The notes under the pieces: model-generated
What the model was told of the DNA's origin: nothing
Databases searched by the model: none
The model's input: only the letters and a program-made list of their open reading frames with translations
Shown: positions 1,325 to 16,166 of the stretch, piece after piece
How the letters are laid out: every line of letters starts with the position of its first letter
How positions within the stretch are numbered: the stretch's first letter is position 1
Position numbers and translations under genes: made by a program
Assembly: GCA_013166835.1 (NCBI GenBank)
Contig: JABLTI010000092.1
Location: 1-16,404 of the forward strand
Length of the DNA stretch: 16,404 nt
DNA from: Promethearchaeati archaeon
GTDB lineage: Archaea > Asgardarchaeota > Heimdallarchaeia > JABLTI01
Direction: 5' to 3'

Positions 1325-1344
1325 GGTCTATCTTCGTTAACGAG

Positions 1345-1355
1345 CTCTTAAAGAG
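1345..1355 (-). promoter_or_regulatory. Candidate TATA box for a leaderless fwdD transcript
   Basis: Minus-strand TTTAAG (1352-1347) about 26 nt upstream of the fwdD ATG; no clear RBS in between. Confidence 0.4.
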
Positions 1356-1520
1356 GTTACGTTAGTTTGATTTTGTTGCGAGTCCGCCCAACTCCAGAGT
1401 GGAGGAACTTTCGTTTGACTTTTGGCTGTGTGTCGCAAAAAACTTCTCTCGAAATTCCTTCAAGAGTCGTTGCCTGACCACAAGGCGTTTCAGTGATAGT
1501 GCTAGTAGTGCAAGAAGCCT
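1345..1520 (-). ncRNA. Putative omega/re-RNA overlapping the tnpB 3' end (boundaries approximate)
   Basis: The segment after RuvC-III is GC-richer, with nested stems TTGCGA/TCGCAA (1376-1381/1433-1438) and CTCCA/TGGAG (1392-1396/1400-1404). TnpB guide RNAs are known to derive from this position. Confidence 0.5.
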
Positions 1521-2834
1521 TTGCATGATATTTACTGTTCCACTTACATCTCGATTTATAACTAACCCACAATCACAATTGATAGTTCGTTCTGAGAGTT
1601 TACGATTCTTCTTTTGCATGCAGTAACAGCATCTTTTAGTTGTTCCTCGTTCACTGATCCTTATTACTTTTTTACCTGCTTTTTCTGCTTTGTAGGTTAA
1701 GAATCCAGCGAAGCGACCAATTGACCCACTGCTTTGCATGTTTCGATGACGGCTTTTATCGTTCTTCTTATCGTTCTTTTTGCTCTCACTCATTGCCTTA
1801 ACATTCAAGTCGCCAATGATGATAGTGTTTGCTTTGGTGTTCTCGACGATTTTCTTGCTTACTTTGTGTTGAAAATCTTTTCTTTGGTTTGCTTGTTTCC
1901 TGATCATCTTCCACATTTTGTCATTGTACCTGTGCCAGCGATTTGAATATTTTTTGCAGTGATCTCTTTTGCTTTGTATTTCCTCTATTTTTGGTTGCCA
2001 GTATTTTTCCACTCGCTTGTTTTTGACGGTTATCGTTTTTCCTTCATGACTGTTCACCGCGGCAACAATGTTCATGAGTCCGAGGTCAATTGTTTGGTAG
2101 ATACCATTATCGAAATATTCCGGTGTGTTTTCCTCGTAAATGATCGATAAGTAGAACTCTTTTGTTTTGTGTACTTGGTAAATGGTTACCTGCTTCACTT
2201 TTTTATTTTCAAAAGTTAGTTTTCCCTGCATCTCAAAAGTTAAATCTACTTTTTCTGCTTTTTTAGCAGGATAAAAATGAGTGAAGGTTATCTTATTCCC
2301 TGCAATTTTGAATCCTTTTTGATTGTAATGCATGGTAGTAAAATAATGCTTTCCTTTGAATCCCGGTGGTCGTGCATTTTTATCACCATTTTTCCTTAGA
2401 GCATGAAACGATTTGTAATCAGCTTCTAATTGTCGTAAAGTATCCTGTAATGTTTTAGAGTAATTTTGTTTATATCGAGGGTATTGCTCTTTTAGTTTTG
2501 GTAATTGTTTGGATTGTTTATTATAGCTAGGTTTGTTTTCTTTATCTCTCTTCTTCTTTGGCAAGTGTTGGTTTTTGCTCCACCATTCTTTTCGTTCCTT
2601 GTTAGCAAAGTAATGGATCAATCGACAGTTTTCTGATAATACCCAGAGCACTTGCTTTTGTTCTTCAGTCGGTGTGATCTTTACTTTATTGGTTAATTGG
2701 AGAGGTTTCTTCTTTACGGAAGGTTTTGTTATTTGCTTAATTTTTAACAGTGCTTTCTCTAGTTCATTCTTTGGTAAATCAGCTATTAATGTTTGGTAAA
2801 CTTTCTTTGCTTGTCTGTGTTCTTTTGAGAGCAT
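1362..2834 (-). CDS. tnpB: TnpB-family RNA-guided endonuclease (IS200/IS605 family, solo IS1341-like)
   Basis: 490 aa: N-terminal KVKITPTEEQ...LSENCRLIHYFA, PPGFKGK, RuvC-I IDLGLMN, DFQHKVSKKIV, RuvC-II region IIIGDLNVKAM, Zn finger TTKRCCYC...CDCG, RuvC-III NRDVSGTVNI. No tnpA adjacent. Confidence 0.93.
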   Translation of the reverse strand: MLSKEHRQAKKVYQTLIADLPKNELEKALLKIKQITKPSVKKKPLQLTNKVKITPTEEQKQVLWVLSENCRLIHYFANKERKEWWSKNQHLPKKKRDKENKPSYNKQSKQLPKLKEQYPRYKQNYSKTLQDTLRQLEADYKSFHALRKNGDKNARPPGFKGKHYFTTMHYNQKGFKIAGNKITFTHFYPAKKAEKVDLTFEMQGKLTFENKKVKQVTIYQVHKTKEFYLSIIYEENTPEYFDNGIYQTIDLGLMNIVAAVNSHEGKTITVKNKRVEKYWQPKIEEIQSKRDHCKKYSNRWHRYNDKMWKMIRKQANQRKDFQHKVSKKIVENTKANTIIIGDLNVKAMSESKKNDKKNDKSRHRNMQSSGSIGRFAGFLTYKAEKAGKKVIRISERGTTKRCCYCMQKKNRKLSERTINCDCGLVINRDVSGTVNIMQRLLALLALSLKRLVVRQRLLKEFREKFFATHSQKSNESSSTLELGGLATKSN

Positions 2835-2856
2835 TGTTCTTCAGTAAAGCATATAT

Positions 2857-2875
2857 TTAGCTAACTATATAGCTA
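2857..2875. promoter_or_regulatory. Palindromic operator-like site 1 (TAGCT-N8-AGCTA) over the tnpB promoter region
   Basis: TAGCT(2858-2862) aactatat AGCTA(2871-2875), 24-41 nt upstream of the tnpB ATG. Confidence 0.45.
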
Positions 2876-2931
2876 TTTTCCACAGAGTTCATTGAAAGTA
2901 ATAATTGTTTACTTAAAAGAATAGTGGAATA

Positions 2932-2953
2932 ATTAGCTTCCCGTACAGCTAAT
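2932..2953. promoter_or_regulatory. Palindromic operator-like site 2 (ATTAGCT-N8-AGCTAAT) upstream of the LAGLIDADG-HTH gene
   Basis: Perfect 7-bp arms with an 8-nt spacer, same core and spacing as site 1. Followed by TATTTAAG (2962-2969) and a GGAG RBS (2994-2997). Confidence 0.5.
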
Positions 2954-3004
2954 CTAAGAGGTATTTAAGAAGGCAAATAGAGATTAACTGATAGGAGAAT
3001 CACT

Positions 3005-4630
3005 ATGCTAGAGTTTCTCAATTGGCGAAATGATCCTTTATTAGTTGATTCTGATCCATTAAAACAAAACACTTGGCTAACAACTAATGATTTATTGGAG
3101 TTAAGCAAAAATGATTCCTTCTTAACATCAACAGGACAAATGCTTCTTTATCCGATTATGATCCGAAAAATAGATTTTCAAACTGGGGAACGCATCTTAC
3201 AATCATTTCCATATATTCTCTTGGGTAATGAATGGACTTCTTCAATTCGAAAACAATCTCTTGCTTTAGCTGAAAAAACGCATCATTATTTTCAGAAATC
3301 AAATTACAATAGAACAATTCTTGAATGGCAGAAAAAAATCATCAGTTACATGGAAGAACAACAACGGCTCCCCTTTCCTATTTTTCGATTAGTTCCATCT
3401 TGGAAAAAGTTTTTTCAAAACAAACAATTCGTTCAATTCCAATCTGCTCGAGGTGAAGATTTTCAGTTACCATTATATCTCACAGAAGAGCTTGCCTACC
3501 TTACAGGTGTTATTATGGGGGATGGGCATCTTGCAGAGTATTTTGTAAACATTATTGATTCATCAAAAAAACACATAGAAAATCTAAGACAAAAGTTAAT
3601 CACTTCATTTAATTCCAAAACCGAACTTTTCAAGCAATCAAACGCAAATGCTTGGAATGTTAACATTCTCGGTAAATGGATTGTTCGGTTTTTTAATTTC
3701 TTATCTGGGCAACCAATAAATGCTAGAAAATATCCCACATTACAAGAACCACTCATTTTTCAAGGAAATGATCTTTTCCGGAGGAGCTTTTGGCGCGGTT
3801 TGATGGATGCAGATGGCAGTTATAAAAGTATTATAGGATTTGGTACAGCCTCGCAAAAATTACGAAATGACTTTTCCCAGTTCTTGAAACATCAAGACAT
3901 ACAATATCGATTCTATGAGCAGTCTGTTTTTGGGGGAATTACATACAGTTTAACAATAGCAGGTGAATCTAGAAAACAATTTGCTTCTTTAATTAGTTCA
4001 AGTCATCCACAAAAACTACAAGAATTACAATTACTATTGCAAAAAAGAGTGATTCCTTTTTCACCACGAACTTCTACTTTGCGAAAACAAGGAGTATGGA
4101 AAGGACAAGTGATAAAGGTTAATAAAACAAAACTATCAAATGGATATTTCAACTTTGGATTGTTATCTAATTTTAGTATATCAGGATTTGGGTCGATTAT
4201 TCGTTCTCTTCGAAAAGAGAATTATCATACTCAACAACAAACTGCCAAAGAAGTAAATATATCTAGATCAATGTTATCAAATTATGAATTAGAGCGCACA
4301 ACACTACCAATTGAAGACTTGATGAATATGCTTTCTCTTTATTCGAAACCATTTGTCATTTTCCTTGAAGAAAAATCAAAGCTACACATCCATTCTCGGA
4401 GTTCACATTGTTTACTAGATGCACAACCTAATTGGAAATTATTGAATTTGCTTCGAGGAGTGCAAGTTAAAGACAAAGGTTGCTTAATGCTTCATGGTAT
4501 GAAAGATGAAGATATTGAAGAATATAGACAAGAAATTGCTAATCATTTTGGAATTGAGGTTAAAAATACAAGAGTCAATAATGAAGTACTCAATAGGTTT
4601 CTTCGAGAATTCTTTATCTTAAAGAATTAA
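3005..4630 (+). CDS. Free-standing LAGLIDADG (DOD)-family protein with C-terminal XRE-type helix-turn-helix
   Basis: Two LAGLIDADG helices, LAYLTGVIMGDG (~3491-3526) and FWRGLMDADG (~3788-3817). XRE HTH IRSLRKENYHTQQQTAKEVNISRSMLSNYE (~4199-4290). GGAG RBS. No intein splicing motifs recognised. Confidence 0.85.
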   Translation: MLEFLNWRNDPLLVDSDPLKQNTWLTTNDLLELSKNDSFLTSTGQMLLYPIMIRKIDFQTGERILQSFPYILLGNEWTSSIRKQSLALAEKTHHYFQKSNYNRTILEWQKKIISYMEEQQRLPFPIFRLVPSWKKFFQNKQFVQFQSARGEDFQLPLYLTEELAYLTGVIMGDGHLAEYFVNIIDSSKKHIENLRQKLITSFNSKTELFKQSNANAWNVNILGKWIVRFFNFLSGQPINARKYPTLQEPLIFQGNDLFRRSFWRGLMDADGSYKSIIGFGTASQKLRNDFSQFLKHQDIQYRFYEQSVFGGITYSLTIAGESRKQFASLISSSHPQKLQELQLLLQKRVIPFSPRTSTLRKQGVWKGQVIKVNKTKLSNGYFNFGLLSNFSISGFGSIIRSLRKENYHTQQQTAKEVNISRSMLSNYELERTTLPIEDLMNMLSLYSKPFVIFLEEKSKLHIHSRSSHCLLDAQPNWKLLNLLRGVQVKDKGCLMLHGMKDEDIEEYRQEIANHFGIEVKNTRVNNEVLNRFLREFFILKN

Positions 4631-4818
4631 TATTGTTAATTTTAATAAAATGAAGAGCAAAAGCTCACGCTTTGGAGCGTGCTCATATATACGCAACTCA
4701 TCCCTTTCAGCGATTCATCACGCATCAGTGCGAAGGTTTTTTGAGAGATTTTTCTCTGATTTTTTGCAGAGAATTTATTATAACCTATAATCAAAAAGGA
4801 ACGTCTTTTTTCCTGCTG

Positions 4819-4918
4819 TTTATATACTTTTGTCGAGGAAATTTGTCCTTTATAAAGAAAATTCTTCGAGTAAGTATTAAGGCAAAGAATAGAGTCGATA
4901 AGATTTTTTCCCTGGTGA
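4819..4918 (+). promoter_or_regulatory. Candidate TATA boxes and RBS for the giant Cas1 gene
   Basis: TTTATATA at 4819-4826, TTTATAAA at 4849-4856, and GGTGA at 4914-4918, six nt before ATG 4925. Confidence 0.45.
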
Positions 4919-4924
4919 AATTTG

Positions 4925-7900
4925 ATGAGTTCTATCGTTTATCCTAAAAAACGCATGCCAATAAGTGTTTCACTCGGAATTACCACCAAATTAGCCGCAA
5001 CTGAGAATATTAATGATGATATGTTTTGTGCTTTTCCATTCGAAAAACAAGAAGCAATACTATTCAACACAAATTCAATGGCATTTATTTGTCAGGATCA
5101 CAGTTATAGGAAGTCGATGCAAGATGAGCTCCTTGTTTTCCTTGCTACTCGTCGTGCTTATGGATTGAAGAATCATACGAAATTACCTGTCATGATTGTT
5201 GTTAAAAGTCAAAAAGTAGGCAAACAAGTTGCTGCTGAACTAGCCAGGCATACCACTGATTATAAACTCTTCAATATGATTTTTACATTAAAAGATAAAA
5301 TAAACAAAGATTTGTTGGTCAAAGTCTCTAAAAAAGCTGACTTTATTCTCTTAACTTATACCCAACTTCGGGATGTAGTTTATAAGAAAGCCTGCCCGGC
5401 TATTGAACAAATCGTTTATGTTAATCCACTAACAAAATATAACAGTCATCGAGAAGCAATTACCTTAGACGACATTAAAGATGGCCTACACAAGCACAAG
5501 TGTCGAAAAGTTAAATTCACTTATATTATTGATGCAAAGTCATTTCTTGTATTGGAAAGAAAGGATTATCTACACATATTAGGGGCAGATGATTGTCTTT
5601 TCTTTGGTTGCGGTGAGAAACCTTTGAATCTTTTAAGTAATGAATCTGAATCCGTTCTGCCACATCTTTCTGAAGAGCATTTTCAGTTTTTCGTTTTACG
5701 TGAATTATTCCGAAAGAGAGGCAATCTTACAGAATTAGTTGAGCGATTCAAAAAAACAATTACCTGTAAACTACATTTGTATAGTTACAATCTTACACCT
5801 CAAAACTTGAAGAAAGATGAAGAGGGCATCTTATCATGTAAAATGATAGAGCGAAAAGCTGAAATCGATAAGAAAATCAAAGGCAAAATAAATAAAACAC
5901 TTCTTCTTTTCAAGAAAAAAACCATGAAAACAATAATTGGGAAAGAAACATATGATCTTGAGCAGAATAAGGTGAATTTTTCTTGGGAGGAACCTATTGA
6001 AACAGCACCTTTCCTTCCTTTAATTGAAAAAAAGAAGGACAAATACTATTATCTTACAAGATTAGGTGAAGCGGTTTTAATTGCTTCATCAATCTATGCT
6101 GGGGTAGAAGTTAGCTTTTCATCTTTTTTGAATCGCATGTCAAACACCCTTTTCAAGAAAAAACGAACTTCACCGAAGCTCTCTATTGAAGAGATATTAG
6201 AGCTTTATAGTATGCTTATTGGATGTGATCCTGTTGACCTTTCACCCACAATCAAAGAATGCTTGACAACAGATGGAGAACAATCTGTAGATGAACTATC
6301 TACCCTAATTAATGAATTCATTGTTCGAGAATTTGGATACATAATGAATGATTACTCAAACCATGCTGCATTAACTCTTCTAGAAGCATTTGAAGAATTT
6401 ATGGATGAAAATGCATTATACTTTATCAAACGATTAAAACATCTCAAGAGTAAAAAGAAGAAAGCAAGAGAAGTTAATCTTCCTGATGCAATTCTCAAGG
6501 CAGTGAAATATAAACCGTTAATGATAGGAGAAGTGAGTCAGAAAGTCAAGGAAGATTACAAGAAAACAGGTAAAGAGCTAAAGAAATTAGAAAAGAAAGG
6601 ACATGTAAAGTCAATTAAAGTAATTCAAAATGATCGTAGTACTCGTTTGAAATATTGCCAGCCAGGAGTATTAGCTAAATTCCCTTATCTAAAGAAGACT
6701 TGTGGTATGTGTGTTTTATACAGAAAACGATTTAAAAAATGTCCATTACTAGAATTGTTGGCAATTTTTGATCAAACAGCTTTCCCAACGGATTATCTTA
6801 ATTATATCTTCAATTACATTAAAGAAAATGCAACTTCATGTGAAAATATCGTTGAATATTCCGATTTAGTGGTTGAGGGAGAAAAAATCAGATACACCGT
6901 TTCTAGAGAAAAACTTGAACGAGAGATGGGAATTATCGAAGGATCTTTTATTATTGGACAAGAGGTTCAAACAAAATATAAGTGCATAAATTGCAAAACT
7001 ATAATAGAAGAATTCGGAACAGGAGGAGAACTCTTCTTTCCGCGAAGACGAATTCTTTGCCCAAATTGCGCAACAGGTTACTATAAAAAAAGCGAACAAC
7101 TCATTTTGATACAAACGGAGTACAGAAATGTTCTTCGAAGTATTTATTACAAACTAACAGGTTCAGTTCCAAAAATTCTACAAGAATTAAAACCATCTTA
7201 TGCTTATGTAATCTATGATTATGAATATGCAAACGTAGATATGCTAAAAAATCAGACACTAGTACTCGAAATATGTAATCATAAAGTACCGCTTGAAAAA
7301 GTTAAGAATATTTATTTCATGGGGGAACAACATGTTGAGCTTGAAGAATTCCTTACCAATCTTGCAAAGGAAAGATCCGAAAAATACTTCTTTACTGTCA
7401 ATAGATCTCAACAAAAAGAGCAAGAGCAAAATGAAATAATAGAAGCTTGTGAACCATTCTCTCAAGAACAATATCAGTTGCTTCTTAAATTAATTGCATA
7501 CATATCTGATAAAGAGATTTTAAACAATGCAATTCTTAAATCAAGGAATTTATCGAATATTGGGGGTTTGCTTGAGTATCAAAGATTTGCACAAGAAAAA
7601 AACCAACGTTCATCTAAGATAAACAAACAATTGTATGAAATGACTGATCTCTTCATGATTGTTCAAACAGGTGTAAAATCAAGTTATTATGGTCGGCAAT
7701 TAGAAGGACTTAATCAAGATTGCTTTTTTGATTTAATAAAAGAAGAAGGAAGAAAAGTTGGTCTGTGGACACACGGCAGAGTTGTTTCACGATTAGTGAA
7801 AGACTTGTTCCTATCATCTACAATTAAAACTAGTAATGCTCGAGCACCATTAGATGCACTAATAAACCAAATTCTACGACAATTTCGATTTGTTGTTAAC

Positions 7901-8998
7901 AAAGTTTTCAGAAAAGTAGGATTTGAACCTTCTTCTATGGGACCAGGATTATTGCATAGGAGAAAATCAAAATCAGATATTGATAAGAAAGGATTCTACT
8001 TCGATATAATAGAACCCATAGGACCATTAGCTTTAGCTAGTTTACTCAAAGCATTATTTGATGATTTGTTCAATGAGGATGATTGTTTTTTAGAGTTAGA
8101 TGGTAGCGGACAAGAAGTTTACAAAGTAAAAAATTCATCCCTTGAGAAAATCGAAAAATTAGTTGAAGAAGCACTAACAGAACCTGTGTACTATAAAGGA
8201 AAGGAACTGCCTTTTCTAAATGCTTTTGAAGAAAATTTGCTTTCCTTCAGGCAAGCAATCCAACTTTGTTTTGATAAGCTCGAGAAGGATAATACAATAT
8301 CATCAAAAGAAATAACACATTGCATAAATTCAGCTGGGTACTATCCCTTTGTTTTTTGCCCCGTTGAGTGCAAAGAAGATCTGAAAAAAATCTACGATTT
8401 TACGGCTAAGAATGCATCCTTCTTTGAAGGAAGAGAAGAACGAGTACTAGCTGCAAGGGAGAAACGTAGTGACTTTAGGGCAGAAGCAATGAAGAAATGG
8501 TTAGCTAGTAATGGGGAACGAGGAAAAAAGAAGTTAAAATTGACTAGGCATCAAGCGAAGGAACAAGAACGAAGCTTGTTAATAGTATTAATGTTGATGA
8601 ACTTTGGAATACAAATGAATGGTTTCTTTGGTTTTTATTCAACAAGCCAAATCCGAGAAATACTTCAACTAACTCAAAATCAAGTACAGAGAATTCTGAC
8701 ACAAATGGTTACTCGAGACTTTTTGGTGAAAATGAAGTATAAGATGCAAAATTTCTATCAACTTAATCTAGAGAATGAAACAGTGCATAAGATACTCTTT
8801 ACCATTGGAAAAATTCCTTGTGATGATGCAGATAGAACACTCGAACTTATGAGTAACTCAAGAAATGTGCTCTCAAGTGTAGAAAAATTGCTAATGAAAA
8901 TTCAGGATTGCAGAGAAGGATTACCATTAAAAATCGGTTGGTCTGGTTGGAAAATACCAAGTAACGTTGAGCAAATAATCGAGCTTGTTAGTGAGTAA
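4925..8998 (+). CDS. cas1: Giant multidomain Cas1 homologue (stand-alone, Asgard aCas1-like integrase)
   Basis: Cas1 N-domain-like HKVPLEKVKNIYFMG (~7280), then RQLEGLNQDCFF (E at 7703), APLDALINQIL, GFEPSSMGPGLLH (H at 7955) and GFYFDIIEPIGP (D 8003/E 8012). This matches the order of the Cas1 consensus EG..a..Yf / N.lLny.Y / G.dp..G.lH / DlmE.fRp. Also a degenerate helicase-like N-terminus, internal wHTH, CxxC clusters and C-terminal wHTH. ATG 4925 preferred to TTG 4922 on RBS spacing. Confidence 0.8.
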   Translation: MSSIVYPKKRMPISVSLGITTKLAATENINDDMFCAFPFEKQEAILFNTNSMAFICQDHSYRKSMQDELLVFLATRRAYGLKNHTKLPVMIVVKSQKVGKQVAAELARHTTDYKLFNMIFTLKDKINKDLLVKVSKKADFILLTYTQLRDVVYKKACPAIEQIVYVNPLTKYNSHREAITLDDIKDGLHKHKCRKVKFTYIIDAKSFLVLERKDYLHILGADDCLFFGCGEKPLNLLSNESESVLPHLSEEHFQFFVLRELFRKRGNLTELVERFKKTITCKLHLYSYNLTPQNLKKDEEGILSCKMIERKAEIDKKIKGKINKTLLLFKKKTMKTIIGKETYDLEQNKVNFSWEEPIETAPFLPLIEKKKDKYYYLTRLGEAVLIASSIYAGVEVSFSSFLNRMSNTLFKKKRTSPKLSIEEILELYSMLIGCDPVDLSPTIKECLTTDGEQSVDELSTLINEFIVREFGYIMNDYSNHAALTLLEAFEEFMDENALYFIKRLKHLKSKKKKAREVNLPDAILKAVKYKPLMIGEVSQKVKEDYKKTGKELKKLEKKGHVKSIKVIQNDRSTRLKYCQPGVLAKFPYLKKTCGMCVLYRKRFKKCPLLELLAIFDQTAFPTDYLNYIFNYIKENATSCENIVEYSDLVVEGEKIRYTVSREKLEREMGIIEGSFIIGQEVQTKYKCINCKTIIEEFGTGGELFFPRRRILCPNCATGYYKKSEQLILIQTEYRNVLRSIYYKLTGSVPKILQELKPSYAYVIYDYEYANVDMLKNQTLVLEICNHKVPLEKVKNIYFMGEQHVELEEFLTNLAKERSEKYFFTVNRSQQKEQEQNEIIEACEPFSQEQYQLLLKLIAYISDKEILNNAILKSRNLSNIGGLLEYQRFAQEKNQRSSKINKQLYEMTDLFMIVQTGVKSSYYGRQLEGLNQDCFFDLIKEEGRKVGLWTHGRVVSRLVKDLFLSSTIKTSNARAPLDALINQILRQFRFVVNKVFRKVGFEPSSMGPGLLHRRKSKSDIDKKGFYFDIIEPIGPLALASLLKALFDDLFNEDDCFLELDGSGQEVYKVKNSSLEKIEKLVEEALTEPVYYKGKELPFLNAFEENLLSFRQAIQLCFDKLEKDNTISSKEITHCINSAGYYPFVFCPVECKEDLKKIYDFTAKNASFFEGREERVLAAREKRSDFRAEAMKKWLASNGERGKKKLKLTRHQAKEQERSLLIVLMLMNFGIQMNGFFGFYSTSQIREILQLTQNQVQRILTQMVTRDFLVKMKYKMQNFYQLNLENETVHKILFTIGKIPCDDADRTLELMSNSRNVLSSVEKLLMKIQDCREGLPLKIGWSGWKIPSNVEQIIELVSE

Positions 8999-9037
8999 AT
9001 AGATTATTACGAAAATAACAACTAGAAGGATGAAAAA

Positions 9038-10663
9038 ATGATTGATAGAATAATAACAAACAAAAAATCTCTTGTGGAAGAGAAATTCCCAATAAAAACA
9101 ACAAAAAGACGTGAATGGTTAAGGATCGCTAAACTACCCTCAACAAAACCAGCAATTGAAAGCGAAATTTGTTGGAAGGATATTCTTCCAAAAGAGGTTG
9201 AATCACTTGCGTCGGTTCTGGAGACATTGGTGAATAGTTCATATCCTTTTAAACATCAAAAAAAAGCATTAGAGTATCTATTAAGTTCAGAGAAGGAAAA
9301 CAAAAACCTAATCATCAATGGAGGAACTTATTCAGGAAAATCATTGTCATTTAGCGTTCCTGGAGTGGTCAAGCTACTGAAGGGAGAAATTGATTTCATG
9401 GTGTTATTTTATCCTTCGAAGCAGTTACTAATGGATCAATTTGAACAAGTGAAGAAATTTGTAGTAGAGGTAGAGAAACAAACAGGTGTGCGGTTAACAA
9501 CGCGAATGTATAGCGGTGATGTTGGTAGGAGCATTATACTTGGAAAAACGAGTTCAAAAAAGGAGCTTTATGAGACTGAAAATTACCCCCCGAACATTCT
9601 CTTAGCAACATTTGATAAGGTTTGGTATCAGATACTTAGAGGGAATAAAAATCCTTTAATCGAAAAAATCATGAACTGTCAGTATTTAGTGTTTGATGAG
9701 ATCCATGCATTCGAGGGATTTGCAGCAGCCATTATTAAATTGTTTATCCATGTACACAAAACAAAAAATCCTGATTGTCAAACAATCCTTTCATCTGCAA
9801 CGATAGATAGAGTATCAGATTTTGGAGACTCTTTTTTACCTGAATCTAAAATTATCACTTGTCCACCTGTTAGGGGAGAACAAGAATTCATTGGGATAAC
9901 GAGAGAACACACAGTTTCCTTACTTGCAGAGCTCTGGAAAGAATTAGAAACAATACCAGGAAAAACTTGTCTGGTTTTTGTTGATTCAAAAGAAGATATT
10001 GAATTATTAGCTGATAGATTATGCACTGCTCTTAAGCAGGAGCATGATTTTTTTGATGAACGAACTGTGGCAGTGATCCATGCTGATATGCCATATCTCC
10101 AGAGGAAAAAAGTACTTGACGAACTACAAAAGGATAAACAAAACAATATCCGAATCGTGATTTCCTCTTCTGTCCTTGAATTGGGAGTGAATATCCAAAA
10201 CATTCAAACTGTGTTGAATATCGGTATCCCGATCACTCAGAAGGATGGCATTGTTCAAAGGATGGCCCGAAATCGTTCTAAACCGGGAGAGCGAAGAGTA
10301 AATATCTTCATCTTTGATCTAGCAAATGCTCGAGATAAATTTTATTGGGAACACAAGGAAATACTGAAAGAAATCCTTGAGACAAATGCTTGTAATCCAA
10401 TTCTGTACCCGAAGCGAAATGCAAAAGTCTTTGCTGGAATACTAATTTTACTAATTCGTTATGGAATAACAGATTTTCGGGAAATAATGACTTTCTATCT
10501 AAAAGAAGGGATACTTGCTCACGAATTAGCTCGACAACAATACTCGAGATTAGTCACTCAAATGATATTAAAAAAGGATAAAGGAAAATTATTGATCACA
10601 AGTAAGGGAGAAGAACTCTTACTGGAAAAGAAAGAATTAGTACGGAAAGAACAAGACAAGTAG
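9038..10663 (+). CDS. SF2 DEAH-box helicase, YprA/MrfA/Hrq1-like (N-terminal part of a frameshifted gene)
   Basis: Q motif PFKHQKKAL, Walker A GGTYSGKS, Ia FYPSKQLLMDQ, YSGD, Ib ILLATFDKV, II FDEIH, III SSAT, IV LVFVDS, V SSSVLELGVNI, variant VI QRMARNR. Confidence 0.9.
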   Translation: MIDRIITNKKSLVEEKFPIKTTKRREWLRIAKLPSTKPAIESEICWKDILPKEVESLASVLETLVNSSYPFKHQKKALEYLLSSEKENKNLIINGGTYSGKSLSFSVPGVVKLLKGEIDFMVLFYPSKQLLMDQFEQVKKFVVEVEKQTGVRLTTRMYSGDVGRSIILGKTSSKKELYETENYPPNILLATFDKVWYQILRGNKNPLIEKIMNCQYLVFDEIHAFEGFAAAIIKLFIHVHKTKNPDCQTILSSATIDRVSDFGDSFLPESKIITCPPVRGEQEFIGITREHTVSLLAELWKELETIPGKTCLVFVDSKEDIELLADRLCTALKQEHDFFDERTVAVIHADMPYLQRKKVLDELQKDKQNNIRIVISSSVLELGVNIQNIQTVLNIGIPITQKDGIVQRMARNRSKPGERRVNIFIFDLANARDKFYWEHKEILKEILETNACNPILYPKRNAKVFAGILILLIRYGITDFREIMTFYLKEGILAHELARQQYSRLVTQMILKKDKGKLLITSKGEELLLEKKELVRKEQDK

Positions 10664-12117
10664 GGAAGATAACAACGAGAGATGTTTTAAGAAAAGGCTT
10701 GCCAGGAAACGTTCTAACTAGAAACAGGCAAAAATACCTTGTAGAGGATATTAATCAGCAAAACAGTAGTATCTTTGTGAAGAAATACTTACCAAGTCGA
10801 ACAGAAGGATTCGACACAGTACCGATGAATAGTTTAAGTGATCCAAGCATTACAGTAGGAATACTACCGAAAGTAACAGAAGGACCAGAGATGATGAATA
10901 TTAGCTTTGGTCAATTAACAATTGAACGAAAGCCAAAAGCAATAGTCAATTATAAACCTGAGAGGAGGATTACAGAAAATGGTGGTGAAAAGTCTAAGAG
11001 CTATTGCTGGCAAGAATTAACCGAAGAAGAAGCACAAGATTATAGCATCAGAGAGAAAGTAGAGGGAATAACCCTTAGCTTGTTAGTTGAATCGGTGAAT
11101 GGGAAGGGGGGATCGAGTAAGGAAATGCTAAAACTACTTGGAAAAATGCTTCTGATTGAAACAGAAGTAGTGCTAGGAATACCAACTTCGGAAATTGGGT
11201 TAATAAGCAACAATATACAATTAGCATTATTTGATAAAGGAAAAGGGAAGGGAAATGCTGGATATTTGTATGAACAGCTAAAGGTAGTTTCAGAGGAATT
11301 GAGAAAAAGGCTAATGAATTGTTCTTGTGAAGAAGGATGCAAGAACTGTTATGGAGAAATAATAGGTGAGCTGCCAAAAGGTTCGAAAGAGGAATTAATA
11401 CTCTTAGCACAAGATCTAGGAAAAATTGTTGAAGAAGATTCGTATGAAAAACTCGAAAAAGAAATTAACATACAATCAAACTATCAAGAAGGAAAGATCA
11501 TTGCCCTGGCAGACATACACTTGGGAAGTGAGTTCAGTTTAGAAGAAGAATTCTATGAAGCAATAAGCGGTTTGAGTAAACAAGCAGATATTGTGATAAT
11601 AAATGGAGACTTGTTGGATAAAGGAGGAAAGGAAGGACAAAAAGCAGTCAAGAAATTATTAAAGAAAGCAATCAGTGAAGGGTTCTGGTCAAAATTAATT
11701 CTGATAAGAAGCTCGACCATACATGATGCTGCACTGGCAAATTTTGCAAATATACAACAACAAGACTATGCACAGATAGAAACAGAAGCAGGAGAAGTAC
11801 TGTTTGTTCATGGAAACAAAATAGGAATAGATCCAAATGATGTAGTGAAAACAAACGAGGAAGGAGCAATAATAGTAGCTAAAGGAAAACTGATAGCAAA
11901 AAGTAAACTTACCGGTAAAGCAAGAAATTGGTTGCCAAAAATAACAAAAGAAACACACTTGGTAATAGGACACTTACATAAAAGGTTCTTCAATGAAAGA
12001 TACAGAGTATATGGATTAGGACACTGGACAAAGAAAGGGAAAAAATTCGATAAAAAATGTTATTTGATCATTGATTCCTCAAACACTCTTAATGAATTAC
12101 AACTTCAATCATATTAG
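10606..12117 (+). CDS. C-terminal continuation of the helicase: DUF1998-like Zn domain fused to a calcineurin-like metallophosphoesterase
   Basis: The frame is open from 10606, after TAA at 10603-10605; the ORF track starts at TTG 10699 with no good RBS. VGKITTRDVLRKGLPGNVL...KYLVEDIN resembles the post-helicase region of YprA/Hrq1. LFD..G.G.A and CSCEEGCKNC (11320-11349) fit DUF1998. Phosphoesterase motifs DIHLG, NGDLLD, HD, VHG, GHLH (~11490-12114). Confidence 0.8.
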   Translation, partial: GRRTLTGKERISTERTRQVGKITTRDVLRKGLPGNVLTRNRQKYLVEDINQQNSSIFVKKYLPSRTEGFDTVPMNSLSDPSITVGILPKVTEGPEMMNISFGQLTIERKPKAIVNYKPERRITENGGEKSKSYCWQELTEEEAQDYSIREKVEGITLSLLVESVNGKGGSSKEMLKLLGKMLLIETEVVLGIPTSEIGLISNNIQLALFDKGKGKGNAGYLYEQLKVVSEELRKRLMNCSCEEGCKNCYGEIIGELPKGSKEELILLAQDLGKIVEEDSYEKLEKEINIQSNYQEGKIIALADIHLGSEFSLEEEFYEAISGLSKQADIVIINGDLLDKGGKEGQKAVKKLLKKAISEGFWSKLILIRSSTIHDAALANFANIQQQDYAQIETEAGEVLFVHGNKIGIDPNDVVKTNEEGAIIVAKGKLIAKSKLTGKARNWLPKITKETHLVIGHLHKRFFNERYRVYGLGHWTKKGKKFDKKCYLIIDSSNTLNELQLQSY

Positions 12118-12258
12118 CAGTAAATTATCTTCGAGATGATTCATTTTTCTAAATAAAACAAATAAATGTTATAATTCATCCTAAAAAGTTAATAATATAT
12201 TTAATATACAAAGACATCATTTTAGATTAAGATATTAATTAAATTTTGTTAACGAACC

Positions 12259-12339
12259 TTAACCATAACCTTCGTTATCAGAATCGGAATCTTTAGGATC
12301 AGTTTGGTAACTGTTCACTTCTAAGCCATCCAGTAAACC
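12259..12339 (-). pseudogene. Remnant of a DxDxDG (thrombospondin type-3-like, Ca-binding) repeat protein
   Basis: Manual translation GLLDGLEVNSYQTDPKDSDSDNEGYG* matches the repeat DGLxDGxEVxxYxTDPxxxDSDxDG. Bounded by in-frame stops, no start codon. Confidence 0.7.
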
Positions 12340-12487
12340 ATGTCACAAGAAAAGGGTGTTTAAATAGACTAAAACATTATTAATTACTGATAAAGAAATC
12401 AGATAATTATATAACAGTTAGATTATACAAAATATATTTTTGTCGTAATAATTCTAATTCTGTGTATTTTCTTAATTTTCTCTAGGT

Positions 12488-12544
12488 TTTATATAGCGTA
12501 GAAAGTGACTGCTTTTTGAACGTAAAGTTCAATCAATAATGGAG
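12488..12544 (+). promoter_or_regulatory. Promoter of the Fn3 gene: TATA box, palindromic operator and RBS
   Basis: TTTATATA 12488-12495; TTGAAC-N5-GTTCAA 12516-12532 at the expected start site; GGAG 12541-12544 before ATG 12553. Confidence 0.6.
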
Positions 12545-12552
12545 ACTGAAAT

Positions 12553-12936
12553 ATGAAAATCAGAAATAAGACAATTCTAAGTATTCTTGGGATTGTAACG
12601 ATATTAGTATTCCTAACAGTTATTCAAGTTAAAGCAACAACTCCAGATCCACCTAGGTATTTTACAACATGGGATTTAGAAAATAATACAATACTATTGA
12701 CATGGAAATCACCAAGCAATATATTAGCTGAAAAATATGACATAGACTGGCGATATAGTACAGGTGATTCTTGGAGTAATTTAGTTGAACAAAACCAAGT
12801 TGGCGGTATAGATGTTGGACAATCATATCCAGTTTATAACCTTGAAGCTTATCACACGTATTACTTCAGAATAAGAGCATATGCAGATGCAACTTGGGGA
12901 GGATGGGCTTACACATCAGGTTGGTGTTCGGAATAA
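12553..12936 (+). CDS. Small secreted or membrane-anchored fibronectin type III domain protein
   Basis: Signal peptide MKIRNK plus hydrophobic stretch ending VKA. Fn3 pattern PDPP...ILLTWKSP...YDIDW...VYNLEAYHTYYFRIRAY...GGW. Confidence 0.85.
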   Translation: MKIRNKTILSILGIVTILVFLTVIQVKATTPDPPRYFTTWDLENNTILLTWKSPSNILAEKYDIDWRYSTGDSWSNLVEQNQVGGIDVGQSYPVYNLEAYHTYYFRIRAYADATWGGWAYTSGWCSE

Positions 12937-12977: not shown

Positions 12978-13367
12978 CTAATTACAAATAATTTTTCATG
13001 AAGAATTTAGTACCTGAATTCTAATTTTACAAATCAAAATTGATTTTCTATTTTCAATTTATATATACATAAATATTATTGGTTTTTGTCAAAAAGTTTT
13101 TTGTTTATTTTTTAATAGATTACCAAAAGGGTTTTTTCAATATTTCTCTTCTTAATATAATGTTTATGCATAGTGTCTTTGTATAAGAAAGAACCTATAT
13201 ATTGATTGAAATTCTTCCATTGAAGATTTCGAATACTTTTAAACTATAATATTATTTCCATTTCTAATAAAGGATTGAAAAATATGATATACATGAGGAT
13301 AAGAATAAAATTATACATGTAATCCTAAGTATTATATTAAAGTCGGGTAGATACTGGAGTTCTATTG

Positions 13368-16166
13368 ATGAGCAGGTTTTCAGAACAGTTAAAGGTTTAT
13401 ATCCGAGTCTTGCTGCTGAATCGCCGCTCCACTATTCTTGCTTTTATTGGTCTTGGGTTTAGTTTAGCATTAATTTCTGAAGGACTGATTTTTGCTTATA
13501 GTTTTCAATATGGGGCATTTGAAGAGTATGCCGGAGAACCACCAACTAAGCAATTAACCGTTTCTCTTTCAGGGTTTTTTCTCGAAGATGATCCAAAGGA
13601 TGTTAAGGACTCTTTCTACAACATAACCAATGATGTTTCTGATTCTCTTGGTGTTTCCCATCGAATTCGAAAATTCGATTGGTTCTTTGAGAAAGGTCGC
13701 ATTCTGGGGGTGGAAGCCCCAGCTATTAATGGAAGTCTGCAGATCATTAAAGACTTCAATATCTATGGTGTCTCTTATGATTACTTCAGTGCTTTTCAAA
13801 CGCTTTTGTTTAATGGTTCTCTGCCTTCTGGTTCCGAGGATGTTTTAGTTGTTGCTAAAAAGAATGTAATAGAGCACTCTAATCTTAGTAATACTGGTCT
13901 ATTTCCACTTTTTGTTCCAGTTTTTGGCGGTGGGGCGCAATATGTTGGACCAATTAATGTTTCAGGAATTATAGCAAAAGAAGAGTTTGGTAGTTATAAT
14001 GGTTCTTTTCGAGATGATTTTAAAGCTATGATTGATTATTTTACAGAGCAATTCATTTTGATAAATATTGATAATTTTCCCCCAATTGTTTCTCCTTTTG
14101 ATGTGACTCGTCCCATTTGTCGGTATTCCTTTTATCTTGAAGAAATCAATTCTTTTGATATTAATTCCGAAATTGCTCTCCTGAACTCATTAAGTCAGGA
14201 GCTTACCAGAGTTTTCGAACGCGAAGGTTTTTCCTTGCATGTATATAATGAGCTCTCTATTCTTTTGCGGGATTTCGCAAATGAATTCCGGTTGTTTCAG
14301 TTGTTTGGTATTATTTTCTTAGTTCCACTAATTGTTGTTTCCGTTGCTCTCTCAAGTTTCTCAGCAAAACTACTAAAGCAACGACAAAGACAACACATCG
14401 CTAATTTGTTTCAAAGGGGCTCCACTCAATTTTCTATTTGGGTTATGCTCTTCTTACAATTATTAGAGGTTACTGTTTCTGGGATAATCTGTAGTTTAGC
14501 GATTGGATATCCTTTTTCCTGGCTTATGTTAAAGAGCACAGGTTTTCTTGCGTTTTCCAAAGTTGGAGTCTTGCTTGCCGTTAATGGTAGTATCTTCTAT
14601 ATCATCATTGGTGCTGCTTTTGTCTTGTCCTTTTTTATAAACTTAAAGGATGTTTGGGATTTCAGCAAAATTTCTTTGGTAGAAGCGCATCAAGAAACCC
14701 AGGAAAAAAAACCATTCTGGTCTAAATTCTATCTGGATGTGGTTTTACTTGTTATTGGTCTAACACTTTGGTTAATAGTGAAATTTCAATTACAAGGATC
14801 AACAGCTTATATTTTCGCATACAGCCTCGGAATAATCGCTCCAGTTGCCATTGTTCTCGGAGGTATCCTGCTAACAGCTCGATTATACCTGTTAGTATTA
14901 CAATTATTAGCAAAACCATTTTGGCGAACTGATCGATTAGGAGTGATAGGATTAGCAATCAAGAGGAGTAGTAGGCGAAAACAATCAACGATGAGAGGAG
15001 TTGTTCTCGTTGCTCTTACTTTCAGCCTTGTTTTCTCAGCATTAATAAGCGTGGAATCCTTCAACCAATACGAAGAGGAAAAAGCGTATTATTCTTTAGG
15101 AGCTGATATTCTTATAAAGAATGTAGATGCGATTTCAATTAATACCAGAAACCAGATTTTAGCTATATCAGGAGTACAAGAAGCTACTTTTCTCTCCTAC
15201 ACTAGTCAAATTGTGACTTTTGGTAGTTTAACTTACTCTTATTACATGATTGGTATAAATCCATTAGAATTTGCCCGGACGGCTTATTTTGATACGGAAT
15301 ATTTTGGAGGTAAATCCCCCGAAGAGTTTTTCGGAGAGATAAATGCCTCTCATGATGTTGTGATGCAAAAGGAGCAATTAGATAAAGGATTTACTCTTGT
15401 GCAAGAAAACATATCATTACCTGGAGAAAAATATCCTATAGGAATTGTTTCCTATGATTTACACGTTGTTGGTATTTACAACTTCCTCCCAAGATTCTTT
15501 ACCGAATATCCTCCTGCAGATGTGCCTATTTTCAGATTCACCGTAATTGGAAATTATTCTTTAGTGGATGAAATTGCTTATAGTCCAATTAGTATTGGTG
15601 TTGATGCTATTGTTAAAGTTGCAGCTGGGCACAGTATCACCCAAGTAGCAAAGGATCTTGAAACTGAATTAGGTCTGGAAGTAGAAAATGTCATCGATGA
15701 AGCAAATCTGTATGCGAAGAGTTTTCGGAACACCATGCTTTACGGCTCAGTAAATACTACCCTTATTTTCTCGTTTCTAATTCTAACAGCTTCGATTCTT
15801 CTCTCTTTACTCAGTCAATTAGTGGAGACCGAAAGAGAGATACGAATGCTACGAGTTGTTGGGTTTTCACCAAAGCAGTTTTTCTCTCTATTTCTCTCAG
15901 AGGTTGGACAATCACTTGTTTTTTCTGCTATAATTAGCTCCTTAGTTGGTGGGTTTGCAGCGAAAATGATTGTGGATCTTCTTACTTTTAACTCCCCGAT
16001 TCCACCGAGTGAATTATCTTTCCCCCTGTTACAATTAGTCTTGTCAATTCTTAGTCTGATTGCTGTTTCTCTTCTAATGGTTGTAATAGCGATAAGAATT
16101 ATCTTCCGAAAAGAAACACATAAGGATAGCAAGAAATCTCTACTTAAAATAGCAGATGAAAAATAA
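13368..16166 (+). CDS. ABC transporter permease, FtsX/MacB-like with duplicated architecture
   Basis: ~932 aa with two repeats of TM + large extracytoplasmic domain + 3 TM. Motifs QRQRQHIANLFQRGST and TEREIRMLRVVGFSPKQ, plus YYSLGADILI. GGAG RBS at 13356-13359 favours ATG 13368. Confidence 0.88.
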   Translation: MSRFSEQLKVYIRVLLLNRRSTILAFIGLGFSLALISEGLIFAYSFQYGAFEEYAGEPPTKQLTVSLSGFFLEDDPKDVKDSFYNITNDVSDSLGVSHRIRKFDWFFEKGRILGVEAPAINGSLQIIKDFNIYGVSYDYFSAFQTLLFNGSLPSGSEDVLVVAKKNVIEHSNLSNTGLFPLFVPVFGGGAQYVGPINVSGIIAKEEFGSYNGSFRDDFKAMIDYFTEQFILINIDNFPPIVSPFDVTRPICRYSFYLEEINSFDINSEIALLNSLSQELTRVFEREGFSLHVYNELSILLRDFANEFRLFQLFGIIFLVPLIVVSVALSSFSAKLLKQRQRQHIANLFQRGSTQFSIWVMLFLQLLEVTVSGIICSLAIGYPFSWLMLKSTGFLAFSKVGVLLAVNGSIFYIIIGAAFVLSFFINLKDVWDFSKISLVEAHQETQEKKPFWSKFYLDVVLLVIGLTLWLIVKFQLQGSTAYIFAYSLGIIAPVAIVLGGILLTARLYLLVLQLLAKPFWRTDRLGVIGLAIKRSSRRKQSTMRGVVLVALTFSLVFSALISVESFNQYEEEKAYYSLGADILIKNVDAISINTRNQILAISGVQEATFLSYTSQIVTFGSLTYSYYMIGINPLEFARTAYFDTEYFGGKSPEEFFGEINASHDVVMQKEQLDKGFTLVQENISLPGEKYPIGIVSYDLHVVGIYNFLPRFFTEYPPADVPIFRFTVIGNYSLVDEIAYSPISIGVDAIVKVAAGHSITQVAKDLETELGLEVENVIDEANLYAKSFRNTMLYGSVNTTLIFSFLILTASILLSLLSQLVETEREIRMLRVVGFSPKQFFSLFLSEVGQSLVFSAIISSLVGGFAAKMIVDLLTFNSPIPPSELSFPLLQLVLSILSLIAVSLLMVVIAIRIIFRKETHKDSKKSLLKIADEK

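Follow-up and report, generated by a model that had tools for sequence, protein, structure and literature searches.

What kind of genetic unit encodes a very large protein with a Cas1 domain when that protein lies outside any ordinary CRISPR-cas locus? The question is raised by a 16,404-nt stretch of DNA from a Heimdall archaeon (hereafter the window, whose coordinates are used throughout). Cas1 works in CRISPR adaptation and in casposons. In the present locus, a sequence-only reading had linked a giant Cas1 gene and a helicase gene into one functional unit, which was taken as either a mobile element or a non-CRISPR system of defence or recombination. Our analysis indicates that positions ~1323-12266 are probably one copy of a ~11-kb autonomous transposon-like element of the proposed aCas1-TnpB kind, with the Cas1 giant as its likely transposase. 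Of the two options left by that reading, the mobile element is favoured, since the unit has well-marked ends, its copies lie in different surroundings and also occur in shortened form, and the ends are multi-copy; defence is disfavoured. Earlier reports of diverged stand-alone Cas1 homologues in Asgard archaea proved relevant, since the part of Altae-Tran 2023 (PMC10691335) drawn on here proposes aCas1 as the transposase of repeat-flanked, TnpB-linked Asgard elements, in groups named Cas1H-Asgard-1 and Cas1H-Asgard-2. Because this aCas1-TnpB association is already published there, the finding is less new than had been assumed.

A conserved module of four genes

The genes of the element are as follows.

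1362-2834, minus strand: tnpB, 490 aa, oriented with its 3′ end towards the outside of the element (Pfam OrfB_IS605, 3.8e-13; Cas12f1-like_TNB, 2.3e-15)
3005-4630, plus strand: LAGLIDADG-HTH protein, 541 aa, with two LAGLIDADG motifs and an Xre-type HTH (Pfam LAGLIDADG_3, 7.6e-10; HTH_3, 1.5e-7)
4925-8998, plus strand: giant Cas1-domain protein ('aCas1'), 1357 aa, with 15 homologues at 35-92% identity
9038-10663, plus strand: 5′ part of the helicase gene, DEAD and Helicase_C (Pfam 5.2e-18 and 3.2e-15)
10643-10644, no strand: point at which 73 nt are missing from the window, breaking the fusion gene into two frames (alignment to the related locus L002)
10645-12117, plus strand: 3′ part of the helicase gene, with a linker, an MZB (DUF1998) zinc domain and a calcineurin-like metallophosphoesterase (Pfam MZB, 4.7e-6; Metallophos, 1.8e-4)

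The giant is a single ORF (counted from ATG) and the next ORF begins at 9038, so that the two co-oriented genes are separated by 39 nt, as first described; the final ORF of this block terminates at 12117. The helicase fusion follows the giant directly in 9/9 related loci that reach far enough, and the expected adjacency therefore holds: the two genes form a conserved pair that is inherited together. The extent of the unit had been drawn too short, as both tnpB and the LAGLIDADG-HTH gene were missed. In related loci, the complete module consists of four genes (tnpB, the LAGLIDADG-HTH gene, the Cas1 giant and the helicase fusion), the first three of which are found together in 7/7 loci with upstream DNA, the window being counted. 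Homologues of the LAGLIDADG-HTH protein (51-62% identity) lie directly upstream of the giant in all six related loci with upstream DNA; its GDG and DADG motifs are both conserved in 7/7 sequences, and it shows a weak PDB sequence match to the putative homing endonuclease 2dch. Catalytic motifs are conserved for every enzyme of the module. Strong matches are confined to one genus of Heimdall archaea, inside which the distribution is patchy (the giant occurs in 7/11 genomes). Ten records are Heimdallarchaeota MAGs by their titles, and the three named proteins among the 15 homologues are Heimdallarchaeota MAG proteins.

The remainder of the window agrees with the earlier description. Among its 17 ORFs (9 large and 8 small overlapping ones), Pfam matched none to Cas2, Cas4, PolB or a CRISPR effector, and no CRISPR-like array was found. 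Note that the window also gave no tRNA, zero Rfam matches and, by Pfam, no other DISARM or Druantia genes.

The giant carries a predicted two-domain Cas1

Four regions can be recognised in the giant, by models and by two alignments (A1, with 16 sequences, and A2, with the 13 full-length ones).

4937-6454, plus strand: Hel308/Ski2-like SF2 helicase cassette with degenerate motifs I and II (aa ~5-510; from a model)
6701-7069, plus strand: Cys-rich region with invariant CxxC pairs (aa 593-715)
7154-8377, plus strand: Cas1 domain, both subdomains (aa ~744-1151; predicted fold)
8555-8809, plus strand: C-terminal winged helix (aa ~1211-1295)

The modelled helicase cassette (pLDDT 74.7) resembles Hel308 2p6r_A over 363 aligned residues (VIA-align Z 20.9, rmsd 6.5; Foldseek E 1.2e-4). 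Neither GK[ST] nor DExH is conserved in it (alignments A1/A2), and with no conserved ATPase motifs the cassette appears to be ATPase-dead. In the Cys-rich region, C593, C596, C606, C639, C687, C690, C712 and C715 are invariant in the 16 sequences; the model has low confidence at aa 593-646. The Cas1 fold, anticipated at ~7230-8300, was located at about 7154-8377 by VIA-align and Foldseek. Its model, of moderate quality (pLDDT 68.7), matches A. fulgidus Cas1 4n06_A (Z 18.1, 260 of 346 residues, rmsd 3.6) and the Methanosarcina mazei family 2 casposase 6opm_A (Z 17.1), with VIA-align rows over model residues 14-421 that span both Cas1 domains, the N-terminal beta-sandwich and the C-terminal alpha-helical one. 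Every match listed by Foldseek for this model is a Cas1 or casposase chain (best E 7e-8). The winged helix (model residues 481-565) matches wHTH and Z-alpha domains with a VIA-align Z of about 10, and has a weak PADLOC match to WH_III-A (E 0.002).

Sequence libraries gave no Cas1 in the giant, whether with Pfam, whose Cas1 model is PF01867 (E<=0.01), or with NCBIfam and PADLOC (E<=0.1), and the profile of the giant found no Cas1 among PDB sequences. A profile of its C-terminal half retrieved only 29 of 1.84 billion proteins at E<=1e-3; 17 of these were scanned with Pfam, and 3/17 carry Cas_Cas1. The candidate catalytic residues E927, H1011, D1027 and E1030, which are invariant in 13/13 full-length sequences, align with E, H, D and D/E of the Cas_Cas1-positive proteins P0036, P0037 and P0039, a correspondence made by alignment to these three proteins and not residue-wise onto a solved Cas1. 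On the predicted fold and this profile link, the identification of a two-domain Cas1 in the giant is borne out.

An active-looking helicase-phosphoesterase fusion

The second gene had been described as a helicase-DUF1998-metallophosphoesterase gene of YprA type. Its identity is borne out, since the full-length homologue at L002 has YprA 6znp_A as best PDB sequence match (E 1e-9), and Pfam recognised DEAD, Helicase_C and MZB in the unbroken L002 gene as well as in the two window ORFs. Its description as one ORF does not hold for the window, where two frames had been overlooked: the fusion gene is present as two ORFs, at 9038-10663 and 10699-12117, in different frames. In relatives it is a single ORF of 1054-1080 aa, and because contigs of the sequencing runs X1, possibly the source of the window, X5 and X7 (Logan) carry 73 extra letters exactly at 10643/10644, the split is an assembly gap or minor variant and not a pseudogene, a single ~1050-aa gene being the biological state. 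Helicase motifs I-III are conserved in 6/6 sequences, as are the MZB Cys cluster and the DxH, GD, GN and GHxH motifs, so that the fusion is active-looking as judged from its motifs. With MrfA/YprA (6znp) and the DUF1998 defence helicases it shares DEAD, Helicase_C and a four-Cys MZB, YprA being its best solved sequence relative. MrfA is partnered with a separate MrfB exonuclease, whereas the present helicase is fused to a calcineurin-like phosphoesterase and embedded in a mobile element.

Defined ends and the insertion context

The statement that the flanks held no TIRs was wrong, as two inverted ends delimit the element.

1323-1341, no strand: tnpB-proximal end, ATGGTCTATCTTCGTTAAC, with a GTTAAC-centred palindrome inside; homology break with L009
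12248-12266, no strand: distal end, GTTAACGAACCTTAACCAT, inverted relative to 1323-1341; homology break with L002

These ends are alike at 15/19 positions, a level reached by 7/1000 shuffles. Homology to L009 begins at 1323, FwdD loci that lack the element (L025, L033) part from the window at 1324, and 1323 is a loose end in two contigs of X5. On the distal side, homology to L002 stops at 12268, and loose contig ends were found at 12258 in X5 and at 12260 and 12269 in X10. In L007, a perfect 18-nt inverted repeat encloses exactly the four genes, and in L011 an inverted repeat of 33-34 nt does the same; these two loci are alike end to end only, their flanks being different, and the same end type was found at L004-left, L003-right and L005-right. 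Outside a core of 17-19 nt, the ends are asymmetric.

Such ends bear directly on the idea that the locus is a non-mobile chromosomal defence or recombination system, in which invading DNA would be the target of helicase-nuclease and giant, and tnpB would be an IS that happens to lie next to them. The helicase does resemble defence helicases (PADLOC SngC, 5.9e-18; BrxHI, 8.5e-16; also Cas3 variants), and some copies have defence genes as neighbours, with a type I R-M system following the copy at L010 and a NERD-NACHT protein preceding that at L007. However, tnpB lies inside the inverted ends along with the other three genes, copies cease to be homologous where the element ends, the ends are multi-copy with deletion derivatives, the distribution is patchy within one genus, and tnpB is present in 7/7 assessable loci, all of which makes this explanation improbable.

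Cas1-type staggered integration normally leaves a target-site duplication. No direct repeat flanks the complete type-b elements L007 and L011 or the tnpB-only element L069, and the searches made found neither an empty site nor an excision joint, which counts against the transposon reading that we prefer; we thus infer, rather than observe, the transposase role of the giant. The window copy is the single one of its genome, and its surroundings are not those of a simple insertion, with FwdD to one side and the remnant of a repeat-protein gene to the other, so that this copy is uninformative on target duplication, and both properties also weigh against the transposon reading.

Shortened copies, copy number and the place of tnpB

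Shortened copies form a graded series of internal deletions. L069 is a 1.7-kb tnpB-only element with both window ends, joining window position 2967 to 12229-12268; a 7-kb internal deletion was found at the orthologous site in genome G007 and in run X10; and miniatures of ~320 nt are present. Graded internal deletions are the usual pattern of autonomous/non-autonomous pairs. In one genome, end cores occur 23 times for type b, with 18 distinct type-b end flanks, and 16 times for type a (about 0 in a backwards control), and the tnpB-proximal end motif of the window is multi-copy in the genus (backwards control 0).

The same copies can be read differently: the mobile unit would be an IS1341/IS605-type tnpB element, the other three genes would be passenger cargo (defence, anti-defence or repair), and the transposase would lie elsewhere or be unrecognised. 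We consider this rather unlikely, with evidence on both sides. It would suit the tnpB-only element, which has both ends, and the wider spread of type-a ends (9/11 genomes of the genus) compared with the giant (7/11). Type-a ends include those of G001, G002, G003 and G007, where the C-terminal half of the giant has no match (G001-G003 being 64-83% complete), a point that counts against the autonomous reading. In X5, the summed contig depth of the tnpB region is 3-4 times that of the rest. The type-a tnpB of L009 is paired with a giant that is 88.6% DNA-identical to that of L010, so that tnpB type and giant similarity are not congruent, which again suits cargo, as does the missing target-site duplication. 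Helicase or WhiA/meganuclease-like cargo is also described, as a rarity, for IS605/607-type elements in the part of PMC10691335 drawn on here.

Against the cargo explanation, a search for Y1 TnpA (PF01797) gave nothing in 5/5 element-bearing genomes, with the control search positive in 6/14 control genomes. A serine recombinase (PF00239) occurs in 1/5 element-bearing genomes, G005, where 75 nt separate its gene from a solitary type-b end; this resolvase beside an end supports the cargo explanation and counts against the autonomous one, but no resolvase was found in the genome richest in ends. In addition, the LAGLIDADG-HTH gene, the giant and the helicase fusion keep their order and intact catalytic motifs although copies are only 35-90% identical, and the graded deletions fit an autonomous element with non-autonomous partners.

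Between the 3′ end of tnpB and the end motif lie 20 nt. The gene shares 75% identity with the tnpB of L009, its last ~120 nt being 89-98% identical and the rest ~75%. The RNA structure predicted for its 3′ region does not surpass that of shuffled sequences (z -0.26), which counts against the preferred element reading. In aCas1-TnpB loci, the part of PMC10691335 used here places a hypervariable stretch and then a GTTCACTCA motif downstream of tnpB. This motif has no exact match in the window and is absent next to tnpB; among 33 loci it matches in one, about 5 kb from the element.

Comparison with known systems

The element is like the aCas1-TnpB elements in its Asgard host, its diverged Cas1 near tnpB (7/7 loci) and its repeat-flanked locus, and unlike them, as far as the part of PMC10691335 used here describes them, in that GTTCACTCA is missing downstream of tnpB at the present loci; this absence, like the lack of a Pfam Cas1 match, counts against the preferred reading. 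With the IS200/IS605 and IS1341 families it shares a tnpB at one end reading outward with a conserved 3′ end, asymmetric ends, no target-site duplication and abundant tnpB-only and miniature derivatives. In contrast to them, Pfam finds no Y1 or serine transposase inside the element (and no Y1 in 5/5 genomes), the termini share a 17-19-nt inverted core, and 9 kb of conserved extra genes are present. Asymmetric ends with tnpB at one of them make the element more IS200/IS605-like than casposon-like, which again counts against the reading adopted here.

Casposases carry a DNA-binding HTH domain after Cas1. The portion of PMC8464041 used here supports an HTH domain in casposases. The present element shares with casposons a Cas1-fold integrase inside the element, inverted ends and an HTH after the Cas1 domain. 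With CRISPR Cas1-Cas2 it shares the two-domain Cas1 fold and an acidic/histidine active-site pattern. A casposon, or a CRISPR adaptation module in decay, would agree with this fold (a casposase is among its best matches), with the inverted ends and with the C-terminal winged helix. Nevertheless, we hold this reading to be extremely improbable, as the gene content contradicts it: PolB, Cas2, Cas4 and an array were not found in the element, no target-site duplication was detectable, and Pfam found no Cas1 in the whole 85%-complete genome, the control being positive in 7/14 control genomes. Unlike casposons, the element has no family B polymerase in its four genes, contains tnpB, a LAGLIDADG-HTH gene and a helicase-nuclease, and has its Cas1 fused to a 740-aa N-terminal extension; unlike CRISPR Cas1-Cas2, it has no Cas2 or array, and its Cas1 escapes the Pfam model, which detects no Cas1 anywhere in the genome. 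The view that this is not an ordinary CRISPR-cas or casposon locus is thereby upheld.

Proposed mechanism and significance

Under the preferred reading of an autonomous aCas1-TnpB-like element, the giant would act as transposase, holding the ends by way of its wHTH and zinc modules and, in the manner of casposases and CRISPR Cas1, linking their 3′-OH groups to the target DNA. Excised or donor ends may be unwound and trimmed by the helicase-phosphoesterase, and the LAGLIDADG-HTH protein may cut or mark DNA at the ends or at the target. Transcription of the TnpB guide RNA would run through the adjacent end and on into the flank. IS605-family TnpB has been shown to cut the vacated site, repair then restoring the element; the present TnpB might act in the same way, and shortened copies would be moved in trans.

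A Cas1 and TnpB transposon would be a third setting for Cas1, in the archaea closest to eukaryotes, and bears on how CRISPR was assembled from mobile elements. Should the giant be the transposase, insertion that apparently leaves no duplication and fusion to an inactive Hel308-like cassette would represent new Cas1-family biochemistry. A stronger version, in which a self-sufficient Cas1-driven transposon integrates without duplication, restores or homes itself with its own TnpB and guide RNA, and prepares DNA ends with its helicase-nuclease, is put forward tentatively, as possible but doubtful; if true, one living mobile unit would unite the ancestors of the Cas1 integrase and of the type V effector (TnpB) and offer a natural toolkit of RNA-guided nuclease and integrase. 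Bench-ready material consists of the exact sequences of two end types, candidate active-site residues and a four-protein set, with the 1.7-kb tnpB-only element and the ~320-nt miniatures as natural non-autonomous substrates.

Gene content of the element

The locus is a ~11-kb transposon-like unit (window ~1323-12266) of four genes, namely tnpB, a LAGLIDADG-HTH gene, a giant Hel308-like-Cas1 gene and a YprA-like helicase-phosphoesterase gene; it has defined ends and shortened derivatives and is confined to one Heimdall genus. The two-gene module of Cas1 integrase and helicase proposed by the sequence-only reading was largely right, with Cas1 confirmed, but it is only the core of this larger element. 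The coordinates and the 39-nt gap that it gave for the two genes were correct on ORF check. The features of the 16,404-nt contig, whose source genome is 85% complete, are listed below; the names FwdB and FwdD represent what we take the two molybdopterin-enzyme genes to be.

Features of the window
2-895, minus strand: molybdopterin-enzyme gene, presumably FwdB (Pfam)
905-1324, minus strand: molybdopterin-enzyme gene, presumably FwdD (Pfam)
1362-2834, minus strand: tnpB (Pfam OrfB_IS605 and Cas12f1-like TNB)
3005-4630, plus strand: LAGLIDADG-HTH protein (Pfam LAGLIDADG_3 and HTH_3)
4925-8998, plus strand: the giant, an ORF of 1357 aa
9038-10663, plus strand: DEAD/Helicase_C ORF (Pfam)
10699-12117, plus strand: MZB and Metallophos ORF (Pfam), in a frame different from that of 9038-10663
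12553-12936: fn3 protein (Pfam)
13365-16166: FtsX-type permease (Pfam)

No CRISPR array or tRNA was found in the window, Rfam returned no family at the gathering threshold over the window, nor any at E<=1 for 12200-12560, and Pfam identified no Cas2, Cas4 or PolB domain in the 17 window ORFs; for the array and these three domains, this agrees with the absences first reported. In the tnpB product, the position where the RuvC-II glutamate is expected seems to be a glycine (IIIGDLN, placed by eye). With this by-eye placement, the window TnpB would resemble the 'rearranged' TnpB clades of Altae-Tran et al. 2023. RNA structure in the tnpB 3' region received no support (z-score -0.26). Note that the 104 nt between the fn3 and FtsX genes (13151-13254) are missing from an otherwise collinear contig of genome G007.

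The Cas1 giant and the helicase fusion protein

The giant has 15 homologues with 35-92% identity, the 3 named ones being proteins of Heimdallarchaeota MAGs, and sequence searches with Pfam, NCBIfam, PADLOC and PDB sequences (phmmer and profile) did not detect Cas1 in it. The fold of residues 731-1357, modelled with 9 sequences as input (pLDDT 68.7), matched only Cas1 and casposase chains among the Foldseek rows listed for the PDB (best E 7e-8). In VIA-align comparisons with the model, A. fulgidus Cas1 scored Z 18.1 (rmsd 3.6 over 260 aligned residues) and a casposase in complex with its integration product scored Z 17.1; several of these alignments spanned both Cas1 subdomains (model residues 14-421, i.e., protein residues ~744-1151), and a winged helix follows the Cas1 domain at residues ~1211-1295. 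In addition, when 1.84 billion representatives were searched with a profile of the C-terminal half, just 29 proteins reached E<=1e-3; 17 of these were scanned with Pfam and three passed its Cas1 model, one of the three being a DEAD-helicase-Cas1 fusion. Residues E927, H1011, D1027 and E1030, invariant in the giant's family, align in the profile alignments with the E, H, D and D/E of these Pfam-positive Cas1 proteins. Since the model carries a Cas1 fold and the profile links it to Pfam-positive Cas1, the Cas1 call made from sequence alone stands. Among the distant profile relatives, P0039 (1140 aa) fuses a Pfam-detectable and apparently intact DEAD/Helicase_C helicase to a Pfam-detectable Cas1, so helicase-Cas1 fusions recur outside the giant's family.

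The model of residues 1-742 (18 sequences as input, pLDDT 74.7) aligned with Hel308 at Z 20.9 over 363 residues (model residues 5-510), and the helicase cassettes of Ski2, Brr2 and Pol-theta scored near Hel308. Because the family alignment contains no conserved GK[ST] or DExH, we infer that this part is a helicase-like scaffold that binds DNA but is ATPase-dead. The stretch between the Hel308-like part and the Cas1 domain has eight invariant cysteines.

The next gene had been read as a single helicase-DUF1998-metallophosphoesterase gene; six relatives do have one ORF of 1054-1080 aa with DEAD, Helicase_C, MZB and Metallophos domains, but the window has two ORFs, as 73 nt are missing at 10643/10644 relative to the related locus L002 and the frame is shifted. 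Contigs of 3 runs from 3 studies, one of which may be the source of the window, contain 73 extra letters at exactly this position, and the window gene length plus 73 is a multiple of three (1050 codons). Together, the extra letters and the restored frame show that the split is an assembly gap or a minor variant. By sequence, B. subtilis YprA/MrfA is the best solved relative, and all six sequences keep helicase motifs I-III, the cysteines of MZB and the DxH/GD/GN/GHxH motifs of the phosphoesterase.

Ends of the element

Ten related loci were fetched, all from Heimdallarchaeota MAGs. In the window and in all six relatives with upstream DNA, a LAGLIDADG-HTH homologue (51-62% identity) lies directly upstream of the giant and is itself preceded by tnpB. 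L007 displays a perfect inverted repeat of 18 nt, one arm next to the tnpB stop on its outer side and the other following closely on the helicase stop, and L011 one of 33-34 nt; each pair encloses exactly the four genes, and these two loci, from different MAGs, are similar from end to end only, with different flanks. The same end type (type-b) was found at the left of L004 and at the right of L003 and L005.

The sequence-only reading had noted no terminal inverted repeats, which does not hold: the window has a second end type (type-a), ATGGTCTATCTTCGTTAAC at 1323-1341 with an imperfect inverse at 12248-12266, matching at 15 of 19 positions; when the +-40-nt neighbourhoods were shuffled 1000 times, this level was reached in 7 cases. 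Both ends are fixed independently, since homology of the window to L009 starts at window position 1323 and that to L002 stops at 12268, the element-free FwdD loci L033 (G000:C113:4322-5643, from the window's own assembly) and L025 (G002:C183) diverge from it exactly at 1324, contigs of other runs break away at 1323, 12258, 12260 and 12269, and in G002 window positions 1322-2967 are joined straight to 12229-12268 in a tnpB-only element of 1.7 kb (L069).

Copies, derivatives and distribution

G400 (with the same places as G008) has 16 exact copies of the type-b end core and 7 more with one mismatch; of the other genomes in the genus, four have 6, 4, 4 and 1 copies and six have none; the core read backwards, used as a control, gave none in ten of eleven genomes and one in G009. 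For most type-b copies the distance to a contig end is 85-300 nt, which is to be expected because repeats break assemblies. Miniatures of ~320 nt consist of one end, ~170 nt with 80.6% similarity to the 3' end of tnpB, and the other end, and their end type has at least 10 different flanks. The type-a end has 16 copies in G008 and is present in 9 of the 11 genomes of the genus.

The derivatives with internal deletions can be arranged in a series. In G007, the copy at the orthologous site is without 3646-10644, and run X10 contains the same kind of joint; the derivative on G007:C86 retains tnpB and the LAGLIDADG gene together with a remnant of the phosphoesterase, and that on G007:C196 retains tnpB and the beginning of the LAGLIDADG gene. 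Strong giant matches were found in this genus only, in 6 of its 10 other members, with up to 3 each among the matches listed, no more than 3 candidates having been scored for any genome; other genera gave just two weak matches among the 389 genomes searched.

Insertion site

The window copy borders on the FwdD start codon at one end and on a relic, 27 codons long, of a repeat-protein gene at the other, which means that its insertion site is not a simple one. This open fragment, HGLLDGLEVNSYQTDPKDSDSDNEG (12267-12345, minus strand, with a stop just before it), is part of a DxDxDG/thrombospondin-type-3-like repeat coding sequence and stands directly outside the distal end, so that the element abuts a gene relic; similar units of ~75 nt (73-79% identity) occur in several other genomes.

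Comparison with relatives for empty sites and target duplications, proposed from the sequence alone, yielded neither. Searching the right and left flanks each in relatives gave no empty site: the element-free loci L025 and L033 have no match to the window's right flank on their other side, and Fwd genes are missing around the FtsX homologues of G005 and G004. L033 holds a second FwdB-FwdD copy with 94% identity, which may represent either a paralogue or another strain (bin contamination 6.8%). No target-site duplication flanks L007, L011 or the tnpB-only L069, and the miniatures lie at contig starts and thus lack one flank. As for excision, no contig joins 1322 to 12267 in four runs, contigs being prone to drop rare variants.

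The giant as candidate transposase

Altogether, the best-supported inference, which we hold to be somewhat probable, is that the Cas1 giant acts as the transposase of the element. Altae-Tran et al. 2023 (PMC10691335) associate some TnpBs with Asgard Cas1 variants (aCas1) and, on the grounds that repeats often flank the loci, regard aCas1 as the likely transposase of a separate transposon family. The element fits this published but uncharacterised aCas1-TnpB kind. That paper also places a hypervariable stretch and a GTTCACTCA motif downstream of tnpB, whereas the motif is not at the loci of our element. According to Koonin and Makarova 2022 (PMC8730458), Cas1 homologues are diverse in Asgard genomes to an unprecedented degree, and some may be linked to new mobile elements. 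No paper describing the present gene architecture was found in the literature listings searched. A casposon, a CRISPR module and a fixed defence locus were each rejected as the identity of the element.

Several observations nevertheless argue against a simple Cas1-transposase reading. Target duplications are lacking at L007, L011 and the tnpB-only element; the ends differ outside a shared core and tnpB reads outward at one of them, as in IS605-type elements; and type-a ends are also present in four genomes that yielded no giant, three of which are 64-83% complete. Moreover, a solitary type-b end stands beside a serine-recombinase gene in G005: at L057 (G005:C117, 6251-6911), this distal end is 75 nt from a gene of 189 aa (Resolvase 3.3e-20), with a RadA/Rad51-like gene further in and neither tnpB nor other element proteins near the end. 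The element might instead be moved by a hidden conventional transposase, but searches found no Y1 TnpA in any of five element-bearing genomes and no resolvase in the genome richest in ends.

Rearranged and mosaic copies

At L010 (6092-8042 and 17371-23272), the left end had no convincing candidate and no type-b end was found on either side. There, tnpB is inverted and a tRNA-Leu gene (7890-7977) lies between it and the LAGLIDADG gene, and a complete type I restriction-modification system (hsdM, hsdS and hsdR) comes after the helicase gene; L010 could be a rearranged or a cargo-carrying copy. In L006 (5122-5915), a 215-aa N6-methylase fragment separates the helicase stop from a type-b-like end, and a piece of foreign DNA may thus be included within the ends of this copy, and L005 (4755-4926) shows a tandem pair of type-b distal ends, 155 nt apart, past the helicase gene. 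In the pairs L007-L011 and L009-L010, the giant and helicase half has 83-89% DNA identity, whereas the half with tnpB and the LAGLIDADG gene shares only 69-72% or carries a tnpB of another type. The change occurs closely upstream of the start of the giant, and this mosaic pattern suggests recombination between elements.
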